From: Lama guanicoe
Lineage: Eukaryota
Reading direction: 5' to 3'
Length of the DNA stretch: 64,000 bases
Assembly: GCA_013239625.1 (NCBI GenBank)
Contig: MU055657.1
Coordinates: 12,197,689-12,261,688, forward strand
The position numbers were made by a program, and so were the translations under genes. Numbering within the stretch: position 1 is the stretch's first letter; every line of letters starts with the position of its first letter. The notes below the pieces were generated by a model that saw nothing but the letters and a program-made list of their open reading frames with translations, had not been told where the DNA came from and searched no databases. Positions 18,924 to 49,526 of the stretch are shown one piece after another.

Positions 18924-18983
18924 GAGTCAGGATCTTGAGAACATCGTCACAGTGGCCACTTCACTTCAGAAAGCTGACAAGGG
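18924..18983 (+). CDS. SCEL: SCEL repeat exon, SQDLENIVTVATSLQKADK (60 nt)
   Basis: gaag|G...AAGGG|gtgaga; open frame, phase 2-2. Confidence 0.92.
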
Positions 18984-20450
18984 GTGAGAGCTTGGAGCTT
19001 TTGAGCTTGAGTTTTGAGATTTTTGTTTCAAAAATGCTTAACCAGTACCTTTAAACGTACCAAAAGTGAACAAAATCCCAATGCTGTTGTATTATTTATA
19101 ATTTGAGAGAAGACAGACTCAGTCTCTCTAGCTTAGTGTCCCTGGAAAATGAGCAGCACTGCCATTTATGCACCTTCCTCTTCCTCTGCTTTCTCTTCTG
19201 GTGACTGATGCTCATCCCAGTCTCCTCAGCTGTCCATGGTTTTGATTTTGTTCTGAATCCCCAGTCCTGTATTTACATTGCTGGCTCAGATCTCTATTTA
19301 TCCATCTTCCCAGCACCCCCATTTAGAATGTCCTAGGCTGTTTCCAGCTTCCTTTCAACTTTTCAAATTCCCAAATGTGCTATTTCCTGACTTCTCTCTG
19401 TTCTTTAATTCAGACAAGCTCACCTTTCTGGAATCATTTTTTATTCTTCCACATCTTGTCCCCTCTATATAGTATCAAGCATGTATGGATTAAATATCTA
19501 AAATACCCCAGATGCCCACATGCCCACATGGCCTCACCCCAGTTCGTACTCTCATTGCTTCCATCACAGGTTATTAGAGTAGCCATCCAGATTGACTTAC
19601 ACTCCTTCAACTAAACCATTACTATCCATCACTACCAGATTGTTCTTTCTATATTTCTGCTTAAAAAAATCACTGCACTGGCTCCCCATTGCCCATTCAA
19701 TTACATATAACCTCATTCAAGGTTTTTGTTAACCTGGCTCCCACCTGACATTCCTTTGCTATTTCTGACTTTATCCTTATATTTCCCTACATGAAATACC
19801 AAATTAAACCACTTATTTTCTATAGTTTCCAGAGCCTCTGCCTTTGTTTATACTATTCCACCCACATGGTGGCCTTTTCCAGCCTCAAGGCTATCATATC
19901 AATCCACCCACATCCTACCCACTTTTCAAGTTCCAGATCAAATACCACCTTCTCTGTGAGGCCTTCCCTGAGTGACCCTGTGAGATGTGGCTTCTGCCTT
20001 TCTGAGCTATTAGAGCCCCATCATTCACAACTAATCACATTTGATACTGTTTCATGGTATTTATGTACATGTCTCATCTTCTCTGTTATCTCTTTAATCT
20101 CTCAGAGCAGATAGTTTGTCTTATTCGCCAGGATCGGACACAATGCTTTGTGCAAAGTAGAAGTGTCTATGAGTAGTGAGAAAACCCTGAGTATAAATAT
20201 CCTGTAGTTTCAGTCCCACGCCTACGAGAATTTCCCTTGCTCAGTGGAATTTCGCAGCGCTGAGAGTGTTATTAGGGACTGCAGTCTCAATCAAAAGGAC
20301 TGAAGAGAAGAAACAAGAAGTGACATTTAGCTCTTCTCTGCAAATTCAGGCACAAAATAAAGGCTCTAAATCCATGACAGAGATGGTAGAAATTATCCCG
20401 AATGTTTCATTTTCATTTCTTCTGTTGTCTAAGGGCCTAGATCTCTCATT

Positions 20451-20451
<1 letters not shown>

Positions 20452-20521
<70 letters not shown>

Positions 20522-20530
20522 CCTATCTAT
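20452..20530. repeat. (TATC)n tetranucleotide microsatellite, ~17 perfect units plus variants
   Basis: Read directly from the sequence. Confidence 0.97.
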
Positions 20531-21080
20531 TTATGTTTGAAAGAATGTTTTCTTTTTAATAGAGACTAGATAGTTTTTTGGTGGGTGATAAGGCTCTTTA
20601 AGGGAGAGGTAGGTGAGTGATGCTGAAGGACAGTTATGGTTTGGCATCCATCAAACAAAACCAGTGAGAGCTGCAGCTGGTTTAACTTTCCTGTCCCCTC
20701 TCCCTCACCGATGATGCACGAATTCCACAGCCACATCGATTCTTCATGGGGAGAAGTTGTTGCTTTGACAGGGGCCAGGGGATATGTCTGTTGCATCATT
20801 GATAGCTGAGTATTGTTACTGTGGGCTGTCTGTTGGGACTAAAAATAGCTTTATTTACCCAAGTCACTCTTTGTGATACTCCTTTGGGAAATGGACTATT
20901 ACTTCTATCTGACTAAAAGCATTTAATTTATTGTAAATGCAGTGGTGAAACTTAATATCCAAAGCTTTCATCAGTTTCAGGTCATTTGAAAAGCTCAGCT
21001 TCTTTGTTCAGAATGCAATTTCCATTTTACTTAATTTCCCACAGAGTGTCTTCTCCTGACTTGTGCTAATTTTTTTGTGG

Positions 21081-21130
21081 AACCCCAAATCCTGATAATC
21101 TTATCATTGTGGCTCATACCAGTCAGAAAG
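21081..21130 (+). pseudogene. Decayed SCEL repeat pseudo-exon (TPNPDNLIIVAHTSQK)
   Basis: Repeat-like codons in the usual register, but the acceptor reads ttttttgtGG (no AG) and the length is 50 nt to AAG|gtatgg. Confidence 0.6.
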
Positions 21131-21669
21131 GTATGGGGCTAAAATTTACAAGATTCTTGGGTTTGCTCTTTGTCTTGGGGACGTGGACATTTGCAGCCTC
21201 AGAGTTGGAAGGCAGAAATTCAAGCAAGAAGTAACAGTGCAGCACTGTGTCAAGGGGCTGGGTAGTGTTGGTCCCACACGAGGATAGAATGTTAATCAAT
21301 TTTTCATCAGAGTCAGCAAATTTTATGTTTCAATATTTATTCCCAGCCTTCAACCCTATCATTGACTACGCAGTGTTACTTTAAAGGATTCATCTCTGTG
21401 ATGGCTGTTGATTGAATGTGCTTTTAGGATCCTTAAGAGGACTGTCCCAGCAGCTATTCTGGTGATCTCTTGTGCCAGGCATCTTCCAAGCACATAAGTG
21501 ACTCAGAGACCTTACCGCTCTAAGGCTGAGCCAAAATCTTGGTGCCTCTAAATTCAGCTTAAAAATAAATGTAGCAAGCATTTATTAAATGCAAAAGTTA
21601 ATACTGACTGGGAACTGTTTATTATAATGGCCAAAATTAATTAAATGAAAGTTTGACTTGCCAGGTGTC

Positions 21670-21860
21670 AATGTTAATCACTTTATATTCATTAACTTAA
21701 ACTGGTTCTCTTCTGAAGTGTATACAATGAGTATTCTTATTTTACAGATGAAAAAAACTGGCAGCAAGAGGTTAGGTAACTCACCCAGAGTCACCAACTT
21801 AATAAGCAGTGAATCCTGGATTGGAATCCAGGTGTCCTCGACTTGGGAACTTGAGTGTCT
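21670..21860 (-). mobile_element. MIR SINE (one of many in the window)
   Basis: Core ttttacagatgaaaaaaactggcagcaagaggttaggtaactcacccagagtcac. Confidence 0.7.
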
Positions 21861-22841
21861 AACTCCTGAGTACCTTGGCCTCGTGTCCTCTGGTCAACAC
21901 CAGTGATGACTCATGAAGAAAGGGGAACATTGAGAAAGTGTGGAAATGTGTGATTCTAGAGGACGGATCAGGGAGAAGTGAGACTGAGAACTGGACAGCT
22001 GATGAGGAAGGCGAGAGAATTGGGGGCGATGGGGATGGAGAATTGAGGAGAGACGTGCTCTGAGGAGCCAACAGGAACAAGAAGCCCCTGTGGCTGCCTT
22101 CTCTGGGGAGCCAGTTGAGCTCATGGGGTTCTAATGAATATTCTGGAACCCAGGGGTTTAGCTTGAACAGGTGACTCCTGAGGAAGCAGCCAACAGTCTT
22201 CAGAGTTCCCAAATACGGAAACAGGAGAGGAAATTTAGCTGACCTGGAATGAAGGAGAGTAGGATTCAGGAAGGAAGCCAGATTTACAGGTAAATGACTG
22301 TTTTCCATTAACAGCTTTGTGCAAGTACATTCTACAAAGCTAGAATCTATAATTGGTCAATGTATGTATATTTGTTGATACAATTAAAACCGGTATTAAG
22401 CATCTACTCTGTGAAAAACACTGTATTAAATACTGAAAAGGATCCAATATAAAATACAGTTCTAAATTTTAAGTGGGGGTATGTGTGCGTTTGTGTGCAT
22501 AGTATGTGTAGGAGCAAGAACATTAATGTGAGACAAGTGTGTAATTACAACATTACAAAGTACAGGTATGTAAGTACCATAAAGGAGATACAAAAATCCA
22601 AAATGCTGCCAGGCTTCCAAAAAGGTAGAGGACTCTGTTCAGTTAAAGGACTGGGGAAGATTTCTTGGAGAAAAATGTGTTTGAGGAGGGCTTTGAAAGA
22701 TAGACAGGATTTTCACGGATGATAAGGTGGGATATATGTTGAGCTTCAGAGAACTCAGAAATAGTTATTTTAAGGTGAATCTGCCCCTTGAGCCTGGGCA
22801 GGCTTTTACTGATGTGAGATTATTTTTTCATTTCTCCAAAG

Positions 22842-22886
22842 TGAAGAATTGGATAATCTCATCAAAATGAACAAAAGCTTGAACAG
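22842..22886 (+). CDS. SCEL: SCEL short repeat exon, EELDNLIKMNKSLN (45 nt)
   Basis: ccaaag|T...AACAG|gtaaga; same peptide as recalled for human. Confidence 0.95.
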
Positions 22887-24033
22887 GTAAGATTTTAAAA
22901 CATTTATTTTTCACTTTATTACTGAATTTACTTTGTTACTTTTCAGTATGCAAGCATGAGGACCTACATACTGGGCTAAAGTGTTGTACAAATCTTGAAT
23001 AAAAAGCTTACAGAAATCAGCACCATTTCATCATTATTATGAATGGTTTACAATTGAAAGATAATAATATTAAAGTGTCTTTGATTTTTGTTCTCCATTG
23101 TTTAGTAAGGCAGTTATAAAAATAACCACGTTTCTGTTCCTGAAATACTAACATATTAGTAAGTAAACAGAGTCTGGTCACTAAATGCTTTTAGTTTAAC
23201 CACTACAAAAAACCCTCATTATCTTAGTTAACATTATCTCCTTATTTTAAGTCATTTATAATTGCATAATTTAAAAATCACGTTACTTGAAGTGTGTGTT
23301 AGAGGTTGTGCAGTTTTATTCTCTCTCTGTCACTTGGCTACTAACATATGAAAACAGGCAGGGACCAAAGAGAAGGAGGAACAAAGCAAATGTCAAATGC
23401 ACTCATGGATCTGAGGATCAAAAGATGTGATTTTCCCATACCCTGTTCTGACGATGATGATCTATATGATTGCCTGTCAACAACTCACTGCAATTTGCTG
23501 CCTTTCAGTTCTCTTATTGATAAAGAGAGGCAGTATTAAGACTCAGACTCTGCAGCCTGCTAAGGCCAGGCGGGTAGAAATAAGTGAAGGGAGCTGACTC
23601 TGGAACGTGAGGCAGTGCCCTGTCGGGGGTGCCCAGCTGTTTCTCAGCTCCAGCAGATGTTGCCACAGAGAATCTGAGCCCAGAGATGCAGGACAGTTTC
23701 AGGAGATCCTGAAATTCCAGGTGTTGTGGCCAGCTTTGTAAATATTGGCTCACATTAAAAACAAATCACTTCATGAATGCCAAAAGCACATCCATGGACC
23801 TTTTAGGCTTGTGGATCCCCAGTTTCTATCTTTTCTTTTCTCTAGGTCCACTGCAATTTAAATTTGAATCTGGGAAAAGCCTAGTTGGCATAAAATGATT
23901 TCAAAAATTGTGACTCGCCTTTCCTAACCAGCTTTCTGTTTCCTGTCTTAGATGTAAACTGATCTATGTTTTTGTAAGAGTTAAGTATCCTATATGACCA
24001 CTGACGAGGTTTTTTTATTCAATACATTTAAAG

Positions 24034-24093
24034 AAATCAAGGTCTTGATGGTCTCTTCAGAGGAAATCTTAAGGCAGAGCCAACAGAGAAAAG
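24034..24093 (+). CDS. SCEL: SCEL repeat exon, NQGLDGLFRGNLKAEPTEK (60 nt)
   Basis: ttaaag|A...AAAAG|gtaagt. Confidence 0.93.
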
Positions 24094-24393
24094 GTAAGTG
24101 CATCTGTCTCGAAACTGAAAATATTATCTCCCAGATTGCTTGTTTCATTCTTTCAGACATTAGCTGGGAGGGAGTTATATCCTCTGGCATAAAATGTACT
24201 AGCAGATGGGGCCATGCACTCAGTATTGTACATTTAGTTCAGACATAATTGCCCAGAAGGATTTCTGCTCTTCTATTCAGTAAGAGTAAATGAGCAATTC
24301 ATGACAAATTTTTACTGTATCTGACCTTTCAAGATACCAGACAATTTTATTTCAATATGCAATCTTTTATTTGAGTTTCTTTGTGTTTTATAG

Positions 24394-24453
24394 AGCCAAA
24401 AGCCTTGAAAATCTCATCTTTGGGAATCCCCAGACAGACAAAGATGGCAAAGG
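24394..24453 (+). CDS. SCEL: SCEL repeat exon, AKSLENLIFGNPQTDKDGK (60 nt)
   Basis: ttatag|A...AAAGG|gtaaga. Confidence 0.93.
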
Positions 24454-25119
24454 GTAAGATTTGACTGAGACTCTTACAGGCTTGTTTGATTGAGTCCTAA
24501 ACTGTATACCATTTCCTGGGGGAGACCTCCTGCTCAAGACAAAAGTCAGACAGGCTGGTGGAACAGGCCCTTGACCAGGGTCAGGGGGTGGGTGGATAGC
24601 TTGATGCTGGCTCTGCCACCAACATCAATCTGCAGAACCCTGGACAAGTTGCTCAACCCCTGGAGGACCTCTGTTTCCTCATTCCATAAAATGAAGGGTG
24701 CGCTCTAGATGATCTCCAAGTTCCCTTTTGTATCTAAAAGTGAAAGATGTCAAACTGGCTGTTACAAGTAGTGGGCAGTAGGTTGCTTTGAGAACTTAAT
24801 ATATTTACTATGAGACATTTTGATGCCGGGAGCATGGCTCCTCACCGCTGAAGTCTTCTTTTTCTAATAAGATACTAAGACCCTTTTCAATTGGAATCTT
24901 GATTGAGTCACTTCATATGTATATCTTGCCGATATATTTGTAAACATCTCAAGGTCAAGAGCCATGCTTTTATTTATTTTGTATCATAAAAAAGAGTGAG
25001 TTAATTAGCAATCAGTAACTGAATGGATAGCATTTGAAGAGGTTAACTTAGAGTTCTAGACTGATACTGATATACTGGAAAGTAAGCTACACTACTGATA
25101 TTATTTTTCATGTTGAAAG

Positions 25120-25179
25120 AAATCAAACTTTTGACAATTTAGTTAAAGAAAACTCCAGAACAATTAAGAATGACAGAGG
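25120..25179 (+). CDS. SCEL: Additional SCEL repeat exon, NQTFDNLVKENSRTIKNDR (60 nt); no counterpart in the recalled human protein
   Basis: ttatttttcatgttgaaag|A...AGAGG|gtaagg; exactly 60 nt, open, phase 2-2, repeat motif in register. Confidence 0.75.
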
Positions 25180-26457
25180 GTAAGGATTTATGAGTCTCTA
25201 CTGCTTTTTCTCCAGATTGGCCGTTTACCTTGTATTCAGTTAGTCATTAAATTTGCCTTCCTAACATAATTGTCTCTATTGTCCTGGTTATCTTTAAAAA
25301 CCATTGATCTGTGCCAATCTGTACACAGACGGGTATTCTAGCTTTCCAAGTCAATCTTGGCAGCATGCCTTCTTAACATTCTCGGATTTAAAACACTGAA
25401 CAAAGTCCGTTTAATGAAAAGCGTTGGCGATCACAATCTCCATTCAGACATTGAATGCGTATTGACAACATGTTACTATAATGTGAATGTGCAAGCATTA
25501 TTACAGGTGATTTTTTTTCAAATGGAGAACAGATGAAATGGGAAAGCAGTCAGTTCTCTGTAAGTGGTTATATGAGTTTTGTAGGAAAAGATGAGATTTC
25601 AAAATTTTAAGAAATGAAGTTGAGAAAGTTCCACAAAAGTGTTGGAAATTAGGAAAAGTGGGATGAGCGTCACAAGTAAATTTCTGTGTGGGCTCGGAAG
25701 GAGAAAAGAGAAGCGATGTGTAATCTGGGCTAATTTGACAGCAACTGGCATTTGATGCAGAAATGAGGGGTCCCATTGGTATAGTAGGGAGAGCCCACAG
25801 TCCCTGTCTCTTCTTCCCTCCCTCTCTCCCATCTTTCTTTCTTATATGGAAGGAACCTCAAATGTTAACAGCCTTATTGCAGTGAGAGACAGATGAAAAT
25901 GGCATTGAACTATTGGGGAATTTAGAGAGATTCTCTTTCATGTTCCCTAATTGCTTTAAGCTGTTGATGTGTGAAAGTTTTACTGGCTGTGGTCAACTCA
26001 TATAAAGTACTAAGGTCATCATAAAGTTATCTCTAACATGACTTGTCTAAATCTTCAAAGTGTTTAGATTTTAAATGTTGATCCTCTTATTTCTACTCCT
26101 GATGTGAATGATTTCCACGTTTAAAAAAGTCAGTATTTCAACACACGTGTTGAAATTAGTTTCTCACCAACCCACCCTCAAAGGACAAAGAAAGCAAGAT
26201 CTGAGGCCTGGAGGGAACTTTTACTTGTAAACTGATGTAATCACGGCTGAGTAATGGATGGGTCCTTACTATGAGGGTAGTTAGCACATCAGCATTTTAC
26301 ATGAGAAGAGCCGCTTGAATTAGACATTTTTAAAGGCTTCTGATGCTTTAGGTACTGCTTAGCCCTGTTATGAGAAATCTGCTGCTGTCAGAAGAAATTG
26401 AATTGTTGTCTTTCTTTCTCTCTCTCTGCCCTCCCGGCCCCCTCCAATGTTACAAAG

Positions 26458-26517
26458 AAACCAAGACCTTGGGAGTCTTATTAAAGTTAATCAGAGGACT
26501 GACAAAAATGGAAAAGT
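26458..26517 (+). CDS. SCEL: SCEL repeat exon, NQDLGSLIKVNQRTDKNGK (60 nt; weak donor)
   Basis: acaaag|A...AAAGT|gtccgt; matches recalled human IQSLGSPIKVNQRTDKNEK. Confidence 0.8.
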
Positions 26518-27042
26518 GTCCGTAAAGCTCCTAACGTGATGCGGCTCCCTTTTTCCATGGTAACGTTTCACACCTCGTTAGAAACGGGTGTGTTATGCTT
26601 TCCTCTGCCACAGATGAACTGTTGTGCTTTGGGGCCAATCAGAGATAGCAGGCAAAGGAATAGGGTGGATCCTGTTTCCACAGGACCACACGTTTGAGAT
26701 GCATTGAAGTAAGTGCAGGAACGCCTGTTGCATAATCTCCAGCATTATATTTTCTTAAATAATTAAAAAATGAGACAAAGTTCATATTTAAACTAAGAAA
26801 TATAAAGGACAAAATTGCAAAGTGAGAAATGTGTTGGTGAAGCTTTTCTGAACTGATTTAAACCAATTACTGCTGTGGAAATTAATCAAAATATGCTAAG
26901 GGATTATTACATCAAAGTTTTCAGATTATTTGGCCCTGGAAACATCTGATACCCTTTCAGGAACATTCTTATTTATACGGATTTCAGAGAAAATTGAGTG
27001 TATCCTAACTGACATAAGGTTTTCGTGTTTTTTTTTCCAAAG

Positions 27043-27102
27043 AAGCCAAGATCTCAAAATGATTATCAAAGCAAACGCCAGGGCAGATAAAACCATCAGA
27101 AG
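27043..27102 (+). pseudogene. SCEL: SCEL repeat exon SQDLKMIIKANARADKTIR with a non-canonical (GG) donor, probably skipped
   Basis: Acceptor ttttccaaag intact, 60 nt open, but followed by gggagagc instead of gtgagagc; read-through reaches TGA at 27116-27118. Confidence 0.7.
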
Positions 27103-27254
27103 GGGAGAGCTGCCTTGATGTTTCTGAATCTTGGTAGTTTTCTCCTGGGTTAACTGTGAACTTCTCAGTATGTTGAGGGGGATCACATCTTTGAGTTTGT
27201 CTTCTCTCTTCTGTGTCTGAACCCTTTCAGGGCAGATAGAATGTCTCTGTACAA

Positions 27255-27380
27255 GGGGGGAGGGTATAGTTCGGTGGTAGACTGCATGCTTAGCATGCAG
27301 GAGGTGATGGGTTCTATCCCAGTACCTCCATTAAATAAATAATAATCGTAAATAAACCTATACCTCCCCAAAAAACAAAA
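27255..27380 (+). mobile_element. tRNA-derived camelid SINE (Vic-1 type), long-tail form
   Basis: GGGGAGGGTATAGTTCGGTGGTAGACTGCATGCTTAGCATGCA...; tail aaataaacctatacctcccc(A)n; TSD agaatgtctctgtaca / agaatgtctacagtaca. Confidence 0.9.
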
Positions 27381-27633
27381 AGAATGTCTACAGTACAGTC
27401 TATCTAAATTTAAATTTACATAAAGCTCAATAGAATCCTAGAGATTAACTTAACTATATTATTAATAGGTCATTTTTATAATAAAAATGAATTTAATACT
27501 GGTATAATTGAATTAATTAATATCATCAATAATATAGAATTATATTGGATTAATTAATAACATCACTAATATGGAATGTGTTTGTAAAAATACTGTGGGG
27601 ATACTTTGAAACTTATCTAAACTTTTTTTAAAG

Positions 27634-27693
27634 GAGTGAAGACCTTGATAATATTATCAAAGTGAATTCCAGAGAAAGTGAAAACACCACTGG
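27634..27693 (+). CDS. SCEL: SCEL repeat exon, SEDLDNIIKVNSRESENTT (60 nt)
   Basis: ttaaag|G...ACTGG|gtaaga. Confidence 0.93.
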
Positions 27694-27960
27694 GTAAGAC
27701 TTCTGAGTATCTTTAAATCTCATTTCTGTAAATGACAATAAGATAAAATGATTTGGCATTTTAATTTCACAAATATATTTTACTAACAAAGAACTGGATA
27801 ATAATGATGGGCCACATGATCTTCCCTCCTTGCTCCCAATAAAACTGCTTATTTTTGAAGAATTGTTCCAATGTTTAATAGTAAGTTGCCTTTTCTCTGA
27901 GATTTTGATTTAGTTTTAGGGATGAGGTCCTGAATTGAATTTCTTTGTATCTAAAGAAAG

Positions 27961-28017
27961 ACACAGTCTTGACAACATTTTAAAAGTGGATCTCCAAAAT
28001 GACAGAGATAGCCAGGA
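27961..28017 (+). CDS. SCEL: Candidate additional SCEL repeat exon, HSLDNILKVDLQNDRDSQ (57 nt via the distal AG)
   Basis: ctaaag aaag|A...CAGGA|gtgagg; in frame only from the second AG; the first AG gives 61 nt with an early TGA. Confidence 0.5.
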
Positions 28018-28863
28018 GTGAGGCTTGACTGAAACTCTCGAAAATCAACTTCTCAGAAGGCAGCAGGGGAGGGGCTGGGCAGGTACACACCCTGGGAGTA
28101 AGAATATTCCACCACTCCTCTGCCCCAGGGCTGGGTCCACATGGCAGCAGTGCCCAGTCGTGATACAACTGCCCTCCTCTACTGCCTTCTTTGGGTCCGG
28201 GTTATGCCTCTGTTGGTATTACACAGTGCATTTCAATGGGGGCAATATATATCTCCCTGAGAAGTGAGTCATTAACTTTCCTACCATGTAAGGTGTTTTT
28301 CTGTTGCTCCTTATAACTCACTATAATCTAATTATATTTTTAAAGGCCTGGATTGGGTGAATGGTTGAATTTATATGAAGACATATATTCTTCTTATCCT
28401 CATTTTTAATATTGTTAAACTACTATTATTCTTAACATTATTCTTATTATTTAAAAAGAAAATCAGCAAGTATATCTGATTTGTTAGATGGAAATTTATA
28501 TTCTATCTGGATCCAGGATAGAACTGTACCTACCTTACATCTCTTCAGTGCTACCCATCTGGGGTGTTCTGACAAGACGTGTCTCAGGGCCAAGCTGATT
28601 TTGTTAAATAGCAAGTTTCACATATACTTACGTGTTTAGAGAACAAAACAAAAATCATATGTTTCTTGTTGATAAATAAGGAGACATAAACGATCTTCAG
28701 CTCAAAATGTAAGAGAAGAATTTTCATTTGCATTTAGAGCTATAAAAATTACATTTGATGAAGAACTGGTATATTTACCACTTCTTAATTTTTCCAATCA
28801 TTGTTCACTTGATTAGTGTTTTATTTTAACGACATTCATTAAAACTCATTTCCTTATTCAAAG

Positions 28864-28923
28864 GAAACAAGATCTCAATGGGCTTATTAAAGTGAATCCT
28901 GAAACAAATAAAAATATCAAGAG
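28864..28923 (+). CDS. SCEL: SCEL repeat exon, KQDLNGLIKVNPETNKNIK (60 nt)
   Basis: tcaaag|G...AAGAG|gtaagt. Confidence 0.94.
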
Positions 28924-29294
28924 GTAAGTAATTTAAAGCTTTTTATTTTCCCTTTGACATTTATAAACACATTGGAATTCTGAGTGCTTATATTCAGGAA
29001 AGTAAATCGAAATTCAAACCAAATTGAGATCTTTTACCCCCAAATACACCATGTTAAGCAGTTCTATATGAGTGATACACTTGCATTTTTTTCTCTGGTG
29101 TTTACTATAAGGTAGATTTTGAGGAATTAAATGGGAATTTGATTACCCTTCTCTAGTGGGCTAAATGATTTATTTCTTTGTGTGTATGTTTGTGTAAGTG
29201 CATATGTGCATGTGTAAGTAGCATGTTATGTATAAATGTATGTGTGTATATGTTAGTGTGTATGTAGAAGTGTGCTGGTATAAGTGTATGTGTG

Positions 29295-29546
29295 TGTATT
29301 AATCAGGGTTCTCCAGAGAAACAGAAACAATAGAATACATATTTTTAGAGAAAAAGAGACTTATCATAAGGAATTAGCATGTGCCCTTTGGAGGCTGAGA
29401 AGTCCCAAGATCTATAGTTGGCAAGCCGGAGACCTCAGAGAGCCAGTAGTGTGGCTCCAGTCCAAGTTTGAAGACCTAGAAACCAAGAAAGCCCACGGTT
29501 AAATTCCAGTCCAAGGGCAAGAGAAGAATGACTCAGGTCAAGCAGT
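29295..29546 (-). mobile_element. MLT2-type (ERVL) LTR running into the second assembly gap
   Basis: tgtattaatcagggttctccagagaaacaga...ggaggctgagaagtcccaagatct...; embedded in a degenerate TG-rich tract. Confidence 0.8.
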
Positions 29547-29770
29547 NNNNNNNNNNNNNNNNNNNNNNNNNNNNNNNNNNNNNNNNNNNNNNNNNNNNNN
29601 NNNNNNNNNNNNNNNNNNNNNNNNNNNNNNNNNNNNNNNNNNNNNNNNNNNNNNNNNNNNNNNNNNNNNNNNNNNNNNNNNNNNNNNNNNNNNNNNNNNN
29701 NNNNNNNNNNNNNNNNNNNNNNNNNNNNNNNNNNNNNNNNNNNNNNNNNNNNNNNNNNNNNNNNNNNNNN
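29547..29770. other. Assembly gap (N run)
   Basis: N bases. Confidence 1.
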
Positions 29771-31677: not shown

Positions 31678-31737
31678 GGGCCAGAGCCTTGACAATCTCA
31701 TCAAAGTGAGTCCTGAAGTAAACAGAGGTAACCCAGG
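31678..31737 (+). CDS. SCEL: SCEL repeat exon, GQSLDNLIKVSPEVNRGNP (60 nt)
   Basis: ttaaag|G...CCAGG|gtgagg. Confidence 0.94.
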
Positions 31738-32377
31738 GTGAGGATTATGTCTTATCTTCCTTCCCATCAAAATCTGCATTAATTTATGGCTCTCATTAGA
31801 GAAACTGTTTTGAAAAATCTGGATTGGAATCAGAAAGTCTGAACTCCATGACTTACCAGCTGGGTGCCTTTGAGCAAGTCCCTTGAACACTGAGCTGAGG
31901 CTTCTTTAGTTATAAAATGAGGCTCATAGTGTCTGTTCTATCTTTGTCATTTGATTTTCATAAGAATTAAGTGAAACAATGGATATAAAATCCCTTTAAA
32001 GCAAAAAGACACTACAAATGGAATTATTAACAAAACATAGTTTAGTTTTATCTACAGCATTAGATGGAATACTGAAAAGTGCCAGCCAGGTGAGAATTTT
32101 CAGCAACTAGTTCCTGAATTTATTTTTTTTTAACTCAGTCTTGCTCTGATTTAATGATTTTATTTTGAAGGTAAATGGGAAACTGAGCTAGTATACCAAT
32201 GATTTGTATGGAGGTCAAATTTTTTACTCTTTACATGAGGGCATAGACTGGGATTGATTTCTCTCAAAACTTAATAATAAAATTCATCTTGAGCACATGT
32301 ATCTTTAATTTAAAGTACTTACTTGACTTAATTCCATTTTCATTTATTATGTTTTTGTTTGTCTTTTTTGTTTAAAG

Positions 32378-32437
32378 TTCCAAAGACCTCGACAATCTCA
32401 TCAAAGCGAATCCAAGAACAGGAAACAACGGGCAAGG
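32378..32437 (+). CDS. SCEL: SCEL repeat exon, SKDLDNLIKANPRTGNNGQ (60 nt)
   Basis: ttaaag|T...CAAGG|gtaagg. Confidence 0.94.
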
Positions 32438-33077: not shown

Positions 33078-33406
33078 TGTTGACCTGAAACAGACTGCCA
33101 GATACTTCTCCTGCCCAGCATTTATTCAGGATCAGCAGAGAATTGCCATTTGCGATCTGCAACCATTACAAGCCACATGCAAGTCCCTGAAGGGCAAGGG
33201 AAGAACACTTTTATAGAGGACAAGGAAGTTGGGAGGGGATAGAAAACAAAGAGTCCACAGGGTTTTCAATGGCTGAGTCCTGGCAGGGGAGAAGAGGAGC
33301 CTGTCTTCCTTTTGGGCTCCGCTATCATGGCAGCAAGTGAGAGCTCCCCCTGCTGGTCTCCTAACTCTATTTCATTGTGGTTTCTGTTTTATTAATTTTT
33401 TTTACA
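33078..33406 (-). mobile_element. Solo ERV LTR (ERV1-like) inserted into a MIR
   Basis: TG...CA ends, minus-strand AATAAA (~33121) and TATAAAA (~33208), degenerate 4-bp TSD ctgc/ctat; MIR sequence resumes on both sides. Confidence 0.7.
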
Positions 33407-33720: not shown

Positions 33721-33780
33721 GGGCCAAAGTCTTGACAGCCTCATCAAAGTGGCTCCTGAAACAAACAGAACTAACCAAGG
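33721..33780 (+). CDS. SCEL: SCEL repeat exon, GQSLDSLIKVAPETNRTNQ (60 nt)
   Basis: ttaaag|G...CAAGG|gtgaga. Confidence 0.94.
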
Positions 33781-34213: not shown

Positions 34214-34305
34214 GGTGGGGGTGAGTATAGATCAGTGGTAGAACGTATGCTTAGCATGCACAAGGTCCTGGGTTCGATTCCCATGTCCTCCATTAAAAAA
34301 TAAAA
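34214..34305 (+). mobile_element. tRNA-derived camelid SINE
   Basis: Same tRNA-like head, A-rich tail, TSD taaaaattatact. Confidence 0.88.
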
Positions 34306-36116: not shown

Positions 36117-36226
36117 AAAAAATTTTTTTCTTAAACCTTTTTTTAAATGGAGGTCCTGGTTATTGAACCCAGGACCTTGTGCATATACTAAGAATGTGCT
36201 CTACCATTGAGCTATAACCCACCCCC
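36117..36226 (-). mobile_element. tRNA-derived camelid SINE
   Basis: aatggaggtcctggttattgaacccaggacc...gctctaccattgagctata; flanking repeat aatttttctctt. Confidence 0.85.
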
Positions 36227-36566
36227 TTTAATTTTTCTCTTGTTCATTGCAACCTTCAAAAATATTCTAAATGCTCATTCTAGTACAAAATGTAATATGG
36301 AAAATAAAGAGTTTAAGAGCAATTTAAATTTGAGGTTGTCTTGAAAGAAATCAAGAATAAAACTAAATTAAATTCTCATATATACATTGTGTAAGAAGTG
36401 AATTGATAGTAACCACCTGCTTTTACAGAGGGCTAAAAAGAGAAGTAATGATGAAGTTTTGAATTAGCAACAATCCCTTAATTCAATCTTAAAATAGAAA
36501 CGAGGTACAAATTATAATCAATTTTCTTGATTTTTATAAGCTATTGAAACTTACAACATTTTTTAG

Positions 36567-36617
36567 GAACCAAGACCTGGACAATCTTATCAAAGTGATT
36601 CCCTCAGCAAATAAAAG
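36567..36617 (+). CDS. SCEL: SCEL repeat exon, NQDLDNLIKVIPSANK (51 nt)
   Basis: ttttag|G...AAAAG|gtaagc. Confidence 0.94.
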
Positions 36618-37549: not shown

Positions 37550-37612
37550 CAGTGAACAAGGTCTTGATAGACTTATTAATGTAAGCCTCAAAGCTGTCAA
37601 AGACACGACTGG
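37550..37612 (+). CDS. SCEL: SCEL repeat exon, SEQGLDRLINVSLKAVKDTT (63 nt; NAGNAG alternative start at 37553)
   Basis: attcag|CAG...ACTGG|gtaaga. Confidence 0.92.
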
Positions 37613-40600: not shown

Positions 40601-41119
40601 CTATGTCACTAATTTGATTATAAACAACTGAGTTTAATTCAGCTTTTTAAGTCATCTTAGAGGAGAGAAAAGTCAGTTTTGATGGATTACCAGATCTCTT
40701 TGCCAAGCCTCATGTTAAGTATAATCCCAGTTTTGAAGCTTATTTTTTTTTAAAAAAGAAATCTTTAGTTGGTGAATATGATTTTAAGAATAACAACATT
40801 CGACATTAGAATCAGTTTGTATCTTCATTCCAGAGTGAGAAGTGGTTAACTGCCAGATGTTGCTATGAACTCTTTGTCCACATGCCCTTGTAGATAGGCT
40901 CTGACAATGAAGTGTGTGAAGTCAGAGTAATTTTTCTTCTGATCCAGTATAATTCATCCTCCCTGGATTGGTTAGAAAATTTATTTCAAGACTATTCTAT
41001 GCCAAACCAATATGTCTCACACTAAATGTTAAAATAGCTAATCCTTTCTTCCAATTCCAACCATTTTAGACCTGTATTATCTCTAATACAAGCTGCTTTA
41101 ATTTTTTTTCTACTTAAAG

Positions 41120-41179
41120 GAGTCAAGATCTTGATAAGCTCATCAAAGTGAATCCGGAAACTCTCACCAACGACCGAAG
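41120..41179 (+). CDS. SCEL: SCEL repeat exon, SQDLDKLIKVNPETLTNDR (60 nt)
   Basis: ttaaag|G...CGAAG|gtaatg. Confidence 0.94.
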
Positions 41180-41318
41180 GTAATGGAACTGTTAATTTCT
41201 GTGCTTTGAGTGGGAAGAATATTTTGTTTCACTATTATTTCAAGCAGATTTATAACCTTAAGATCTTATCAAAAGAACTTTATAATTAACCTGCTTTCTT
41301 TTGTTTTTCTGTTTAAAG

Positions 41319-41378
41319 AAACCAGGATCTCGATAACCTCATCAAAGTGAACCCTGAAGTAATCAGAAGTAATCAAAG
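41319..41378 (+). CDS. SCEL: SCEL repeat exon, NQDLDNLIKVNPEVIRSNQ (60 nt)
   Basis: ttaaag|A...CAAAG|gtaatc. Confidence 0.94.
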
Positions 41379-41517
41379 GTAATCAAATAAAAACAACCAT
41401 TTCCTGTTCTTGCGTCTGTTGCCCCTGAGTGGAGTGGGTTTATATCGCTTTACTGACCCAGCACAAGCAAAAAAACCTGTCACTAATCTGAGTTTATGTT
41501 TTTTCTCTTTTGAATAG

Positions 41518-41574
41518 CAAAGCTTTGGACAGTCTTATTAAAGTGAAACCTTCAGCTCTCAGAGACACAAAGCG
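41518..41574 (+). CDS. SCEL: SCEL repeat exon, KALDSLIKVKPSALRDTK (57 nt)
   Basis: gaatag|C...AAGCG|gtaagt; branch-point-like cactaat at 41481. Confidence 0.94.
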
Positions 41575-44259
41575 GTAAGTGACTTTACCTAACTCTCTTT
41601 TCATGTTCCCAAAGTTCTAGGTTAGGAATTCCCCCCTCCCTCCCTCTCTTTCTCTCTTTCTTCTTTTTTTAAACAAGCCTTTTATTTTTCTTTAGTGTCT
41701 AAATGAGCACACATTTATAGCCCATGTGTTTCCTGCCAGCAGAGAACGTGCTGCAGTCTTCTGGAATCAACTGCACTCTCTTGGCCTCAGTTTGGTACTT
41801 CTTATTTGCACGAAGACAACTTAGTGTTTTGTTGTCTATTGGGAACAGAGTACTGGGACTGAAATGAAAAATTAGTGAAATTTAATTAGAGGAAAACATA
41901 TTTTGGAGAAGCTGAGCCAAACTGGTGATTGCATCTTCATATAGATGCTTACAGAGTGTTGGAAAGGATGTTCAGAGTCTTCAGAATTGCAGATCCACAA
42001 CTCACAAGGGCTCACAAAATATTCCAGCAGATTTTAACCTTGCATTTCCATTTTGAGTTCTGCAAATATCTTATAATTCACTATATGTCATATCTTTCAC
42101 TGAAAGAGCTTATTAATTGCTAACAGATAAATGCACCGGAGTGCACTGTATTAGAAGTCCACATTGTTCTGCTGACCTGAAATTTTGTCATAATAAATAT
42201 GTAGCTGGGAATCATAGTCTCAATATTCTGGGATGAAGAAAGCAAATTAACATATGGAAAAGTGCTTTGAAGCCACTAGGAGAAAGGACGGTGTGATAAC
42301 ACTCATTGGCAAAGGTCTTATGTCTTTTAGTTGGTTTTCTACATTAATGTTTTATTTTGCTTTTTCTGTTTGTGTGTTTTTATCATGAGCTGCTGGGGTG
42401 TCTGAGGTAGGAAGGTACCAAGGCAGTTAAAGAGCAGTTGCTGCTTAGAGAGCAGCATTTATTGAGCACCTCTGACATGCCTTTTTATACATTTAATCCT
42501 CACAACAACCAGCCCCATGAGAAATATATTCATGCAAGCTATTTTATAGAAAAGGAAACTAACTATAGCTAAAATATATTAAATAATCTTCTTCAGAAAG
42601 AAAACACATCCTGGACCTAAACTTGAATTCTTCCGACGTCCCTACTAGAGGAGAACAGGAGATCTGGGGCGAAACAGCTCAGACTCACTTCTCCTTCCCA
42701 TCCTTCATCTCCCTACGGTCCCTTCCTTTCTAATCCCCCTCCGCCACCAGCAGTTAAAGGACTACAGTTAGATACAGCTTTTCTAGAAAATTGTCGTTAA
42801 AATGACAGGAGAGAGAGAAAGTGCTTGTCTCCTAGAGATTTTCTAGTAACTGAAATAACAGCGGACTTTTGGTGTCGACCCTGCCACTGGAAATATCTTT
42901 GTTAAGTAGAACAATGTCTTCATAGTGGCATTGGTTGGGGCAGATTTTTCTTTTTATCAGTAACAGTTTCAGGAGGTTCCCAACCCATGTTGGAAGTGGC
43001 TAGACTTAACCACGTGTGGAATAGCCAACAGTGGCTACTGTAGCCAACTTCTCCCTTAGTGGCTGCTTCCATAAAATGTATCTCTCTCTCTCTCTCCTCC
43101 CCTGTCTCTTTCTCCCTCCCTCTCTCCTGTCCTCCCTCCCTTACTTTCCCCTTATTCTAACTTTCTCGTCTCTCCCTTCCTTCTTCTGGCAAATGTGCTA
43201 TATTGGCAGATAATGGTAACTTTCTCATGAGTTCTGTCTTTTGTTTACTAGAAGGGGCTAATCTTATAAAAAGTTCTTTGTGTTTCAGCAACTCCTAACA
43301 AAATATCTATAAAAAGAGGACATCTTCCTTATACAGACAGGATTACTATAAAGAAGAAATTTTCAAATGTTGACCATTATGTTGTTTTCAGATGGCAGCT
43401 TGATCTACAAATCTCATGTAAGCAGTGTCTGATTATTCTTTAGCATTTACACCAGATTTGATGATAATCAGCCAGGATATTCAAGAATTATTGCAGAACA
43501 AATAGGAACGACTAAGCTGCCCATTTAAAAAAGTGACTTCATTCAATATGTTCAGTCTCTTGTGTCTACAATGTATCTATGTGGCCCACTGGATTTTAAT
43601 GGGTACAGAGAGGGGGCATTTTAACATGCCTCCCTGTAGGAATAACAGCCACAAGGCACTTTTACATCCAATTCAATGTGACAGGAGCTCTGATTATTTA
43701 ATAGTGTAACAGTGGTGAATCAGAGTTCTTTTTATGTGACTTTGCTGACATTTCCAGCAGCTGTATATTTAATTCGCAGTTAGGGGCGGAATAAACTTTA
43801 GTCATTGATCAGAATGTAAGCAGGTGTCCCTGAGCTCCTTCTAGGAACACAACAACCTGAACAAATGTAGATGTGCACAGAATTTTCATTTATTCAGGGA
43901 GAAACTGCATGACTTTTAGCAGTAGCAGTTTCGTGTTTTCATGAGCCAACATTGAAGAGAAATATTCAACTATCTATAGCCTAAAACCAGCTGCTCCCAT
44001 ATGGAGATTGAAAAACATCTAGTGATATAGGTCTTTCCAGTCCATAAAGCATCCTTCATCAGAAGTAGAAAAATTATTCTGAACTATTTGTCCTATTATA
44101 CTTCCATTTATGCAAGAGCTTCGTATTTGCTAAGACATACCTTGTTAGTATTCCAGTAAGAGAATTCCTTCCTATCTTCCTATTGCATACTTCTCATATT
44201 TCTTCTCAAGACAGAAAGCTGGGGGTTGGGGTGGGGTGACCTTGACTGTTTCCATTGCT

Positions 44260-44955
44260 TTGTTCCCCATAATCAACAGGTGACTTTGGATGCTTCTCCT
44301 AGGAGTATCTCAAGAACCAAGACACTTCATCATCCCCACTATTACTGTAGCCCAGATTACTATTACATCTCCTCACCAGTCCCTCTGCTGTCAGTGATAC
44401 CTTCTGCCTGTCAATCCATCTGCCTCACTGTAGAGTGATCTTCTTAAAACACAAACCTGATCACATCTTTCTTCTGATGAAGGCCTTCTGTGGCTTCTCA
44501 TTGCCACCGGACAACAGCTGTACCCCTTAACCTGGTTTCCAAAGCCCACCATGATCTTACCTCCACAGGTCGTCCCACTCCTATTCCTTATTATGCTCCA
44601 CCCACAAGTAAAGCCCACCCACACACTCTCTGACCTGCAGGCGTCTCGCTCCTCCGTCATCGCCATTGCGTGGATAACTGCTACCCATCCATTAGGTGTC
44701 AGCTGAGGTGTCTTTGATTCAGGTTCTGGGAAGCCCAACCTGACCCACCACATCCACATCTGGTCCTTCTAGATGTTTTCAAGCTCTCAGTTTTCTGTCC
44801 CGTAGGTTTTGTCTCTTAAAGGGAATTATTATTTTATCATATCTCTTCAACAATTAGATTTTTAAGGGCAAGAAATGAGTCTGTCTTGTTCACTTCTTCA
44901 TCTACAGTGCATACCACAATGCATGGCACATGTTAGATGATAAATAAATATTCTG
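44260..44955 (+). mobile_element. L2 LINE 3' remnant
   Basis: gtctgtcttgttcact...cacaatgcatggcacat...taaataaatatt L2 terminus; boundaries approximate. Confidence 0.6.
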
Positions 44956-46736
44956 AGTTACAGGCTAAATCTCAAAACTGATCAAGACCCTATGATCATC
45001 CACCGAGGTACAGTCTAATCCTTCTGACACTAACATTCTGAGCCCTCATGAATGAAACCAGACTGGAGGGATCTGATATCTTATGACTGGTCTCCTTGCT
45101 TAAGCCAGCGACTCTGTTTTGAACCATAATCTCAATGAACCATGGTGAATTAGAGTCACTGAAATTCTTGGTCATTTCTTATATTTAAAATACCCAAATT
45201 GTTCACCTTTCTCTATGGACCTGTTAATTTCTTTAATGTAAAGTCTTTAAGATTCCTTCATTGAAACAAATTATAAAAATATCTAAAGCTGCGCCCATTT
45301 TTTTTCAAAGTCAAAAGAATTGAAGAATTATAACAGTGATCTCACTGTATTCTATGCTTCTTTCAGAGAGATAAAGATTCTTTTTGAACTAAAACTTAAA
45401 GCCTAAGATTTAGTTCTTGGCATAAACGAAGTACCATAGTAAATTTTTCAGATGGAGGCTTTTAATTTTGCAAATGTGTTTGATACTCTGCAAAAACAAT
45501 TTAAGTAAGCTGTAGAGAGAGAAACATATTGCAGCTTTTAATAAATACTTCCCACACCCTCACAGGAGAGAAAGAGCAGTTGGGAGAGAGCTGATAGAGT
45601 TCTCTCATGTTGAAAGGAAAAGCTGTATTATAAAGACATGGTAATACCTTGTTTCCCAGAATCTCTATTTTTTTCTTAATCTGCTCTGTAAGGGAGTGCC
45701 ATTCCTTGATGGGGCAGTGAAAAATAACTTACATGATTATAACATGGATAAGTGCTTCTATTCAAAATGTGTGCTATGACTCCACGTAACAGATAACTCA
45801 CATTTTCTCCCAAACATTTTTGAAGTCTACAGAAAGAAAAGCATTTGTAGTTGTTATGGTTAACAAAATTTCTTTTTAGCATTTCTCACCGTATCCACAG
45901 AGAATTGGTTTCTTGAAGTTAGTTCCAACTGCTCATAAAATCACAAAATTATAAGGTCTTCCTTCCACTGAACTGCCACAGAGGTTTGGAATCAAGCCTT
46001 TGTTCGACCCTGCAGCATTTGGCTGGGCTTCTATAAAAATCTATTTTTCACACTTTGACTCACAGCTCTTCATCTTCTGTCACAGTGTAAAAGACACGAT
46101 GCAATAGACATGGTCTTAATTAAGGAATGAAAATTTATTTCTTACTCTCTTCAACTCGGGAAGTTTCTGGGCAATCTGAGCTTCTTTTGTTGGGTCTCCA
46201 CATCTAGCTGATGACATCAGTCAGGGTGAACAACCAAAGCAAATACACATTTTGTACTTTTCATTATCTGAAACTTTGTATTTTACCTTAAATATTAGTA
46301 TAGAGTATTCAGAATAAAATCTTATAATCCATTCTGCCAAACTTGATATGTGACACTGTTTAATAAAAACAGCAAAAATTCTATGAAGCTATTAATGGCA
46401 TCATTTATTCCGTGATGCACAATTAAATTCCTTTGGGAGTGTGCCTCTTTGAAGGCAAGCATAGGTTCCAATTTTGCATTGTTTACCTGGAGTGGTTGGA
46501 TTTGTGAGATTCTGGCTTCTTCTCCTTGCTTAGGTCTAAGCCCATTGCCACTCTCCCTCATGGTAGCTAGGGTCCAAAAGACGTGAGTCCTGGAGGTGTG
46601 GCAGGGGGCAGGTGTAGGCAGATCAAAGAAGCAGCATCTGCGGCAGCCAAGAGTGGAAAGTGCCGAGCAGGTAAGGACATCCAGCATCAGGCTGAGAAAT
46701 TAAATGTAGTCATGCTGTGAGGGCAGAGGGAAATCG

Positions 46737-47138
46737 ATACTAGTTTGTAGGGCTGCCATCACAAGTACTGCAGCCTGGGAGGCTTAAAACAGAAATTTAT
46801 TTCTCACTATTTTGGAGGCTCAAAGTCCAAGATCAAAATGTCGGTAGAGTTGGTTCCTCCTGAAGGCCCAGAGGGAAGGGGCTATTCCAGACCTCTCTCC
46901 TTGGCTTATAGAGGGCTGTCTTTACCCTGTGTCTTCATTTTGTCTTCCATCTGTGAGTCTAAATTTCTTCTTCTGATAGAGATGCCAATCATATTGGATT
47001 AGGGCCCACCCTAATGATCTCATTTGAACTTGATTATCTCCGTAAAGACCCTATCTCCAAATAAAGTCCCATTTGGACATACTGGCATTAGGACTTCAGC
47101 ATATAAATTTGGTGGGGTGCCAAAATTCGACCCATAAG
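46737..47138 (-). mobile_element. MLT1B/C-type MaLR LTR
   Basis: gggctgccatcacaagtac...cagaaatttatttctcac...tggattagggcccaccctaatga...aggacttcagcatataaatttgg. Confidence 0.8.
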
Positions 47139-49463
47139 GAAATGTTCCAAAATAAGGAAACAAAGCCAGGGGTGGGAGCTGTGTTAAAAAGGAAAGAAAT
47201 GTGTGCAATTCAGAGGCGATGTAAGGCAGGTTCTGGGTGATGGACACAAATGGAGGTAAAGTGTCCATCACTGTCTCTACTGAGCTTTTCTGCCTGGTCA
47301 TGGTGCACACTGTGTAGCTCGATGTGGGCGGAGTTGACTGCCTTAAAGGTTTTGGAGATTAGTATCTTTCCCTTGGGTCCCTTTCATGTCTTTTCCCAGG
47401 GCCAGGTAAGGTAGCAATAGATTTCCACCAGAGAAGGAGAAAAAGAGAATTTGAATGGACTTAATGCCACAAGCATTTTTGGAGCAGCTACTGCAGGGCA
47501 AGGCCATGTTAGGCCACTAGTAATGTGATTGTACTCTCAAGTCATAAAGAAAAACACCAGCTTCTTTAAAAAATGTCACTCAGTTCATCCAAGGTTACCT
47601 TTGGAGGGAGAATCACTTTCTGGGACAGAACTCTAATTCCCCAAGATTCACGTTTCCTAGTGATCTCTCACCATTTCCCATGGTCAACCATCCCAGTCTG
47701 ACATTCCTAGAACACTGGATAACAGAAGACCATGATACTCCACTTAATTTTATTCCGTTATCCCCAAGTATTTGGTAAAGTATTATTTTAAAATGTTAAG
47801 GGGAGAATCATTTCATGCTGAGGCTGTTAAAATAGTATGGTGACCCCTGAGGCTAAGAAGTAATTAGGGAAGGACCGTCAGGGGTCAGGCAAATACAAAG
47901 CCTCCTGTTTCTGTTTCTCAGCTTGAAGGATGCCACCTGGGAGGTTTCCTCACCCAGTCCTAGCAGTTATGTTGAGGAAGTTAGTTTTGAATTTTATATC
48001 ATTCTGACTGCAGAATCAAACGATTTTGATACTCCTGAGCTGCTTCTGAAATCCTGTACTTTTTACATATATTAATTGGCATATTTTCTACTATCATTCA
48101 CATTAAAAAATAATTTAACTAATTTCTACATTTTTCAAAGATGTGCAGCTAGTATGTTAAATGTGAGGTTTAAGTGTAGCTGTGGAATGCTGTCTAATTA
48201 GCATATTTATCAATTATTGATGGTTTGGATATTATATAAAAAGAGTATTAAATCTCATTCCACATAAATATGAGGACTTTTAATATTAATTTTCATCCTT
48301 ATCAATATTAATTTTGTGAGAGTCCATACACTGATTCCATGTAAAACAGCCTTACTTGAAATCTATTCAGGATCAGAGAAGGGAGATTTATGAAAACCAG
48401 ATTTGATTCTGAAGATGTGAAAAGTTAGGGTAGAAATAAAAATGAAAATGTAGTCCCTCAAAATTTTGGAATCCATATTGCCTACTGCTGTGTCATTACA
48501 CTTCTGTTAACTATCACTTACTTATTTTTATTCAGTTCACTCACCACTGTGGTGATCGTGCCCACAAATTTTATTTACATGAAGTCATGTATTCTCACCG
48601 CAACCTTATAGGATTAGGTATTATTATCCTAGTTTGCAAAAGGAAACTGAGAAATGTCGACTAACTCGCCCAAGGAAATAGGAGAAGTCATGGCCTCACT
48701 CTGACTCTTAAACCATCCTCCGCACCAATAGAGTTTGTGACAAAGACTCTTCCAAACTCATGGGGAAGAAAAAAGAGCTACCAGTATTATAGCAAATATA
48801 TAAATAATAAATAAATAACATACCAGAGGACATTGTATCTCATGAAGATGTGTCAAACCATTATCATGGCACAAGATTTAAGAATCAAATTGTCCCATTT
48901 ATCCTCCACATGATGAATTGTTTGTTCACATTTTGAGTTGACTTCTCATGTTTCTATCATGCAAAAAGCTGGAATGAAGTCTCTAAACATTTAAGATTTG
49001 GTTTCAGATGGGCAGGTCGCTCAGCCTCAAATCTTGACTCTTTTACAAATTCACTAAGTGACCTTGGAAAATTCCCTTAGCCTGAGCCCCATATGCTGTC
49101 CTGCAAGATTTTGTGAGCTCTGAATGAGATAATCCATGTAGAAATACACAAGTTAGTACTTCGTGACACAAAGTTAGTATTCATTCAAAGTTAGCTGAAT
49201 GTGAATATCATTCAGTTGTTTCTTTTCAGACCAGATTTCACAAACCTTCCGAAAAATTAGTTCTTTATTTCTCTCTCACGAGGGTAATCCACCCTCATAC
49301 TTGAGTTGTATAGATCAAAAAATTCAATATCAGATTTTGTATGTCCCTTATTCTAAAAGATCACAAATGACTGCATCTAAGATTACGTACTGATCTTTTA
49401 AAATGTTATTCTAATGTTTATTTCCTAAAATTATATGTAACTAAATATTTTTTTTCCCTGTAG

Positions 49464-49526
49464 AGACCAGAACCTGGAAAATTTAACTGAAGTAAATTCA
49501 AACATGTCTAAGAATAAGAATGGAAA
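49464..49526 (+). CDS. SCEL: SCEL last repeat exon, DQNLENLTEVNSNMSKNKNG (63 nt)
   Basis: ccctgtag|A...GGAAA|gtaagg. Confidence 0.93.

Follow-up and report, generated by a model that had tools for sequence, protein, structure and literature searches.

The 64,000-nucleotide (nt) stretch of guanaco DNA analysed here, which we call the window (Lama guanicoe; GenBank assembly GCA_013239625.1, contig MU055657.1, positions 12,197,689 to 12,261,688), carries a long array of short exons belonging to the sciellin gene (SCEL). In the interpretation that we favor, and to which we give a probability of about three in four, the repeat core of camelid sciellin is made of 20 one-repeat exon units in an order shared across placental mammals; the array was likely produced by exon duplication before the placental radiation and was thereafter modified by the loss and skipping of units, with no new births. 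Sciellin is cross-linked into the cornified envelope by transglutaminase, and the mouse knockout is reportedly normal. Passages of PMC5041940 and PMC12081798 treat the role of the protein in this envelope.

By protein matching, the array is the set of repeat exons of camelid SCEL. Using the first LIM-domain exon as a query gave 352 proteins, and most of the best 120 are named sciellin or SCEL, with identities of 85-100%. The peptides encoded in the window have zero mismatches to the alpaca proteins XP_072832479.1 and XP_031540308.1 in any unit past the junction-adjacent first residue, and at most one mismatch per unit to dromedary sciellin. The composition of the repeat region (Q 5.7%, K 10.5%) is that of the Gln/Lys repeat core of sciellin. 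Pfam did not call the half LIM domain of the LIM exon and returned no family for the two repeat units tried. An original prediction, made from the DNA sequence alone, had proposed sciellin with one exon per repeat, and both the LIM exon matches and the exact alpaca RefSeq peptides support it.

All 20 units are on the + strand, spaced irregularly from 18924 to 49526. A repeat search revealed families of 58-83 nt across 18.9-49.5 kb, and by iteration a position matrix settled on 20 units. A profile hidden Markov model (HMM) constructed from them recovered exactly those 20 at E <= 1.9e-6, a self-match by construction. The units had leave-one-out position weight matrix (PWM) scores of 13.6-49.0, the reverse complement reaching no more than 4.6 and the reversed window 6.2; 18 of the 20 exceed the highest maximum (18.8) of 60 order-3 Markov null windows, whose mean best score was 8.9. 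Units 3 and 20 fall below this null peak, yet each is present residue-for-residue in alpaca RefSeq proteins. The predicted number of 20 repeat units thus withstands examination by HMM, PWM, null windows and alpaca protein matches. The two next-best HMM matches (E 0.095 and 0.45) were considered as additional relics, at 14800-14845 upstream of the array and at 25854-25913 between units 6 and 7, respectively, and rejected as being at chance level, their scores having been reached by 35 and 15 of the 60 null windows.

Fourteen of the 20 units are 60 nt long, the others being 45, 50, 51, 57, 57 and 63 nt, and 19 of the 20 lengths are multiples of three. None of the 190 ordered unit-unit junctions creates a stop codon; the split codon always encodes G, R, S, V, E or D. 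The mostly 60-nt length and stop-free junctions noted previously are therefore correct, and the further claim that any subset of units splices in frame holds for the chosen coordinates; it fails for unit 2 and for the upstream acceptor of unit 10. Since the five non-repeat exons flanking the array also combine phase 2-2 with a length divisible by three, the repeat exons are not special in this respect: frame symmetry is a trait of this whole part of the gene.

The evolutionary history of the array was explored by aligning 198 proteins, in order, to the 20 unit positions of the window, referred to here as slots. This sample, drawn from the best 120 of 352 and the best 120 of 343 matches, consists mostly of computed gene models and covers 80 named species; 189 of the proteins have more than three repeats and 180 are near full length. 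As many as 2,673 of the 2,674 array repeats could be placed in order, 23 of them outside their own best-scoring slot, and the sole unplaced repeat comes from a pig model and is a truncated unit resembling slot 7. Across the 198 proteins 18 of the 20 slots are in use, with a maximum of 17 in any one protein, and 178 of the 180 full-length proteins use 9-17 units. Slots 2 and 10 are used by none of the 198 proteins and in none of the 80 named species, and no new slot beyond the window's 20 was found among the 2,674 placental array repeats. The order-constrained profiles were trained on the same data, and the assignments were retested using only the units of the window and leaving the order free. 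This put 51 of 56 afrotherian, 36 of 39 xenarthran and 280 of 314 euarchontogliran repeats into their correct slot, and the ordered runs comprised 51, 36 and 283 repeats, respectively, versus 20.6, 14.8 and 114 after shuffling. On these alignments Xenarthra, Afrotheria, Euarchontoglires and Laurasiatheria share orthologous slots in one and the same order, and the slots are thus older than the placental radiation.

The original prediction had also spoken of a birth of units, and for placentals this part of it finds no support: there is no new slot and the slots are orthologous across superorders. Armadillo and elephant already have both members of the most similar pair in the window, units 12 and 14, which are 83% identical over 48 nt and resemble each other in their flanks too. 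The top identity between units of the same protein has a median of 68% and a maximum of 84% in placentals, and among the 2,674 repeats of the placental proteins there are no young near-identical duplicates and no lineage-specific extra units. The contrast of 20 camelid with 17 human units sets all genomic units against live ones. In the five camelid proteins, taken together, units 1, 3, 4, 5, 7, 9 and 11-20 are used and units 2, 6, 8 and 10 never; because unit 7 occurs only in two older alpaca models (P0044 and P0122), both of which jump from unit 7 to unit 17, the live count according to the gene models is 15 units, or 16 if unit 7 is included. The orangutan and capuchin proteins have 17 units each, and human sciellin is described as having 16 inexact 20-residue repeats and a LIM domain (PMC5041940).

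The loss of units is, by comparison, supported. No carnivoran (0 of 55) or pangolin (0 of 2) protein uses slot 15. Slot 6 is unused in all 58 cetartiodactyl and all 50 caniform proteins, whereas the three felid proteins all use it and all lack slots 8 and 15; slots 4 and 13 are missing from all 9 delphinid proteins. In this collection of proteins, mostly gene models, the absences follow clades and are not scattered. The Delphinidae (P0170-P0175, P0181, P0182 and P0192), in which slots 4, 6, 7, 8 and 13 are missing from 9 of 9 proteins, have some of the shorter sets and might be of interest with regard to the evolution of cetacean skin.

The single units of the window are in different states, and three of the lesions listed in the original prediction can be seen in the sequence: the weak donor of the unit at 26458, the lost donor of that at 27043 (GG for GT) and the decay of that at 21081, which has no acceptor AG and a donor that gives 50 nt, out of frame. 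Donors were scored from a table. Unit 6 is only 61% identical to its slot consensus, farther from it than all 19 orthologues, with its GT/AG sites intact; this is probably the pattern of a silent exon that is drifting, and a targeted protein search for the unit gave no candidate, which is weak evidence. Unit 7 is as near to its slot consensus as the median orthologue. Slot 8 is used by 0 of 5 camelid versus 9 of 12 ruminant proteins, and the unit 8 peptide is as conserved as that of the median orthologue despite the missing donor GT, which most likely reflects either a recent camelid loss or an assembly error. Unit 10, for which a shifted acceptor at 27961 had been proposed, is probably better read as a dead exon with a frameshift: if the AG four bases ahead of the one chosen earlier is used, the exon measures 61 nt (27957-28017) and its fifth codon is a stop, as might be expected after a one-base insertion in a dead exon.

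After the exon duplications that would have built the array before the placental radiation, the process that we envisage runs as follows. Because every exon is phase 2-2, a single weakened splice site would remove 15-21 residues and leave the reading frame unharmed, so that a unit could drift at low cost from constitutive to cassette to silent to decayed. Units 2 and 10 would have been lost either ahead of the placental radiation or in its early part; the silencing of unit 6 would likely belong to the cetartiodactyl line and the death of unit 8 to that of the camelids. For the protein, the consequence is probably small: a change, mostly tolerated rather than tuned, in the number of Q-x-L-D-x-L-I-K-V motifs (cross-linking or binding sites) within a predicted disordered region. 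In a charge-hydropathy analysis the repeat region lies on the disordered side of the boundary (0.388 vs 0.419), and the LIM region lies on that of folded proteins. An AlphaFold model from a 24-sequence alignment had a mean predicted local distance difference test (pLDDT) score of 34; it failed for the LIM domain too and is thus uninformative on the repeats, and the ESM Atlas provided no usable match.

Several considerations weigh against this history of ancient duplication followed by tolerated loss. Absence from proteins that are mostly models, with many species represented by one protein, is not absence from genomes, and a protein-only comparison would miss a recently duplicated unannotated exon. 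There is no marsupial, monotreme or bird among the named proteins, so that the age of the array is bounded only from below. The camelid proteins are only five and do not include isoforms X1-X5 of the current annotations; units 6, 7 and 10 could be included at a low level. Finally, the head of each unit is conserved (Q 68%, L 89%, D/E 81%, L 68%, I 77%, K 63%, V 74%), with 77% identity across superorders versus 66% for the tail. This suggests selection on each motif and sits less well with a variation in number that is mostly tolerated. The head could supply Gln and Lys for cross-linking or serve as a short binding motif, and the number of units may also set the length of the spacer ahead of the LIM domain, as the original prediction proposed.

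The number of repeats per transcript had been predicted to vary by exon skipping, and differing unit sets in both the gene models and the Logan-derived proteins of other mammals agree with this, as do two human papers. Twenty sequencing runs share part of the camelid array, six of them recorded as RNA (shares of 0.05-0.06), and speak neither for nor against skipping in camelids. At least two unit sets occur in 21 of the 28 species having more than one protein (mostly computed models), and unit 1 is the slot most often variable within species (10 of 28). Logan proteins identical to those of dog have unit 11 in four cases and lack it in two; among eulipotyphlan-like Logan proteins units 13-16 are present in one and missing in two. 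Slots 7-9 are omitted by 12 of the 15 Logan-derived proteins, though gene models include them. The 2-3 kb Logan contigs are presumably transcript assemblies and hence less model-dependent. In human placenta a 60-nt SCEL exon is a skipped exon that differs by 0.36 in percent spliced in (PSI) between placenta groups (PMC6471577); unit 1 is likely its orthologue, the introns measuring 1669 and 3858 nt compared with 2053 and 3971 nt in human. Another human 60-nt SCEL exon has a single nucleotide polymorphism (SNP), rs2274016, at its last base, and its allele-specific skipping has been confirmed by minigene (PMC7919445). Unit 11 is likely the orthologue of this exon, a primer row in that paper resembling, by eye, the end of the unit, and the single-substitution step has direct support in the published minigene result. 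The proposal that lineages adjust their repeat number by splice-site substitution survives with regard to loss, for which there are clade-wide absences and the rs2274016 effect, but not, within placentals, with regard to gain. The isoform numbering in the annotation of this gene runs very high, reaching X49 in Bombina (P0205) and X33 in chimpanzee (P0118/P0119).

It could be objected that such variation is splicing noise compounded by annotation artefact, each species having one dominant form and the lesions of units 7 and 8 being perhaps assembly errors or polymorphisms. Most of the isoforms are indeed "X" models, and the alpaca models P0044 and P0122 lose nine units at once. We consider this explanation unlikely, given the minigene confirmation of allele-specific skipping in human, the different unit sets among Logan-derived proteins within one species and the clade-wide rather than scattered absences.

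A second alternative, which we regard as rather doubtful, is that the array is a regulated valency dial: tissues would choose the number of motifs and lineages would fix their sets by selection, altering the number of partners or cross-links, for example by docking of the paxillin-LD type ahead of the LIM domain. The hydrophobic head conserved in each unit, the placental PSI difference of the unit-1-like human exon and the omission of slots 7-9 from most Logan-derived proteins are all compatible with this, and L[DE]x[LI][LIF] is matched by 12 of the 15 live window units. The first five positions of the paxillin consensus LDxLLxxL (PMC3305314) fit 465 of the 852 distinct placental repeats. However, its final leucine is present in 0 of the 852, and identification of the repeat as a paxillin-type LD motif was rejected on this ground. 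Moreover, the strongest published SCEL splice switch, an 80% PSI change in lung adenocarcinoma, affects a 70-nt exon (exon_5 of its transcripts; PMC4446417), which we considered as a possible repeat exon and rejected by its length and its position outside the array. The reportedly normal mouse knockout also speaks against a dial. If the repeats do prove to be binding motifs, their number would become a valency setting in the epithelial barrier and adhesion, and the carnivoran and dolphin losses could be tested for function.

Outside the placentals a deeper search of 1.84 billion representatives was made and twenty proteins were looked up. The repeat motif was also found in newt, caecilian, frogs, turtle, anole, snakes and skink, with 3-10 copies in full-length examples, and these non-mammalian units do not map onto the placental slots. 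The motif was not detected in the sciellins of reedfish, bowfin, gar and denticle herring. These ray-finned fish proteins (P0220, P0221, P0222 and P0246) have unrelated Ser/Thr-rich middles where tetrapods have the repeats, and in bowfin, gar and denticle herring these contain tandem copies that are nearly identical; from the sequences, this suggests repeated independent expansion of repeats at the same middle site in fish and tetrapods. Near-identical units within one protein occur in Rana (100%), Bombina (89%), Xenopus (84%) and a skink (100%, in a single gene model). Compared with the placental median of 68%, the 84-100% likeness of these frog and skink units indicates that births do occur in the family and that, as judged by unit identity, the evidence for recent ones lies outside the placentals. 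A broader scenario would have an LD-like docking motif, born in tetrapods, replace the Ser/Thr-rich spacer of fish and expand independently in frogs, squamates and mammals, with splicing or splice variants setting the number of adhesion or cytoskeletal partners per LIM protein in stress-bearing epithelia; we think it quite unlikely. That birth and death are still ongoing in mammals, the camelid line having gained units, is highly improbable: the near-identical amphibian and skink units and the lack of an orthologue of units 2 and 10 in any protein seen might be cited in its favor, but these two units are, unlike young copies, at most 40% identical to any slot consensus, the placental within-protein identities are low and camelids have 15-16 live units compared with 17 in orangutan.

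Our favored history of early duplication, loss and skipping can be set beside known systems. The gene is that of human and other mammals, in which skipping of 60-nt exons is published (PMC6471577, PMC7919445), and the camelid differs in a live set without slot 8 and probably without slots 6 and 7. Exon-borne repeats that are included or skipped in frame are likewise known in nebulin and matrilin 2 from the ASPRING catalogue of more than 5,000 alternatively spliced repeats (bioRxiv 10.1101/2023.04.29.538821); SCEL has 0 occurrences in its main text, though the supplement may list it. As in the deeply conserved protein tandem repeats of Schaper et al. (PMC3995336), unit order has been kept since distant speciation, but in SCEL the number of units used varies (9-17) through loss and skipping. 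In proteins of the paxillin family (PMC3305314), too, C-terminal LIM domains are preceded by a likely disordered region with short Leu-Asp motifs; these proteins differ in having four LIM domains rather than the one of SCEL, whose repeats all (852 of 852) lack the final Leu, and SCEL is left unclassified in that paper. Our searches of the open-access literature turned up neither a 20-slot map with two relics and clade-wide losses nor any account of how the SCEL repeats evolved or of LD motifs in sciellin; the original sciellin gene papers may describe part of the map. One of these, from 2000, is said to describe the exon layout. With the gene known, the skipping of repeat exons published and the type of array catalogued, the pattern is an ordinary one for repeat proteins and reveals no new mechanism. 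Its interest, useful but modest, is that one gene displays the successive stages of a dying exon (constitutive, cassette, silent with intact sites, donor lost, frameshifted, decayed), a natural series that the slot map makes easy to date across mammals, with a human splice SNP in the likely orthologue of one slot. The coordinates are collected in Table 1.

Table 1. Repeat units and neighboring SCEL exons in the window.
Feature	Position	Strand	Description
Non-repeat SCEL exon, proline-rich	15033..15113	+	81 nt, phase 2-2, AG/GT; = alpaca P0090 residues 182-209
Non-repeat SCEL exon ahead of array	17189..17254	+	66 nt; = P0090 residues 210-231; GT after 17254
Unit 1	18924..18983	+	60 nt, live; alpaca protein match
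Unit 2	21081..21130	+	Relic, dead; acceptor AG lacking; nearest strong donor gives 50 nt
Unit 3	22842..22886	+	45 nt, live; short form common to placentals
Unit 4	24034..24093	+	60 nt, live; missing in 9/9 delphinid proteins
Unit 5	24394..24453	+	60 nt, live; used in 80/80 named species
Unit 6	25120..25179	+	60 nt, GT/AG intact; likely silent in camelids
Unit 7	26458..26517	+	60 nt, weak donor; status uncertain
Unit 8	27043..27102	+	60 nt, donor GT absent (GG instead); likely recent camelid loss
Unit 9	27634..27693	+	60 nt, live cassette
Unit 10	27957..28017	+	Likely dead; 61 nt with early stop from upstream AG, 57 nt in frame from AG at 27961
Unit 11	28864..28923	+	60 nt, live cassette
Unit 12	31678..31737	+	60 nt, live; nearest paralogue is unit 14
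Unit 13	32378..32437	+	60 nt, live; missing in 9/9 delphinid proteins
Unit 14	33721..33780	+	60 nt, live
Unit 15	36567..36617	+	51 nt, live in camelids; missing in carnivorans, pangolins
Unit 16	37553..37612	+	60 nt, live; one residue longer from the tandem acceptor at 37550, 3 nt upstream
Unit 17	41120..41179	+	60 nt, live
Unit 18	41319..41378	+	60 nt, live; 139-nt intron each side
Unit 19	41518..41574	+	57 nt, live; shortened acceptor common to most placental proteins
Unit 20	49464..49526	+	63 nt, live; skipped in alpaca model X6, kept in dromedary X6
Non-repeat exon past array	54292..54384	+	93 nt, phase 2-2
Non-repeat exon	55098..55169	+	72 nt, phase 2-2
Non-repeat exon	58235..58309	+	75 nt, phase 2-2
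First LIM-domain exon	61657..61765	+	109 nt; = P0090 residues 584-619; top protein matches named sciellin

Some minor features of the window remain to be mentioned. There are two runs of N, at 2783-3063 and, within the array between units 11 and 12, at 29547-29770; the latter may hide sequence, and no protein seen requires a slot there. Between units 12 and 13 a 32-nt segment (32058-32089) has AG/GT ends and a translation loosely resembling the repeat head, but it is out of frame, was missed by the HMM and is probably due to chance. The flank similarity among units 17-19, the highest observed, was discarded as an artefact, the 139-nt introns bringing neighboring exons into the flank windows. 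The repeat search also located copies at 1534-1626, 27256-27342, 34217-34303 and 36146-36240 that we take to be a short interspersed repeat, and the stretch at 55300-56500, after the exon at 55098, is presumably a longer one resembling a long interspersed nuclear element (LINE). Finally, units 16 (37550-37553) and 17 (41120-41123) have tandem acceptors three bases apart that add or drop one residue, and both forms of unit 16 exist in other mammals, where its spacing is 21 in 62 proteins and 20 in 17.

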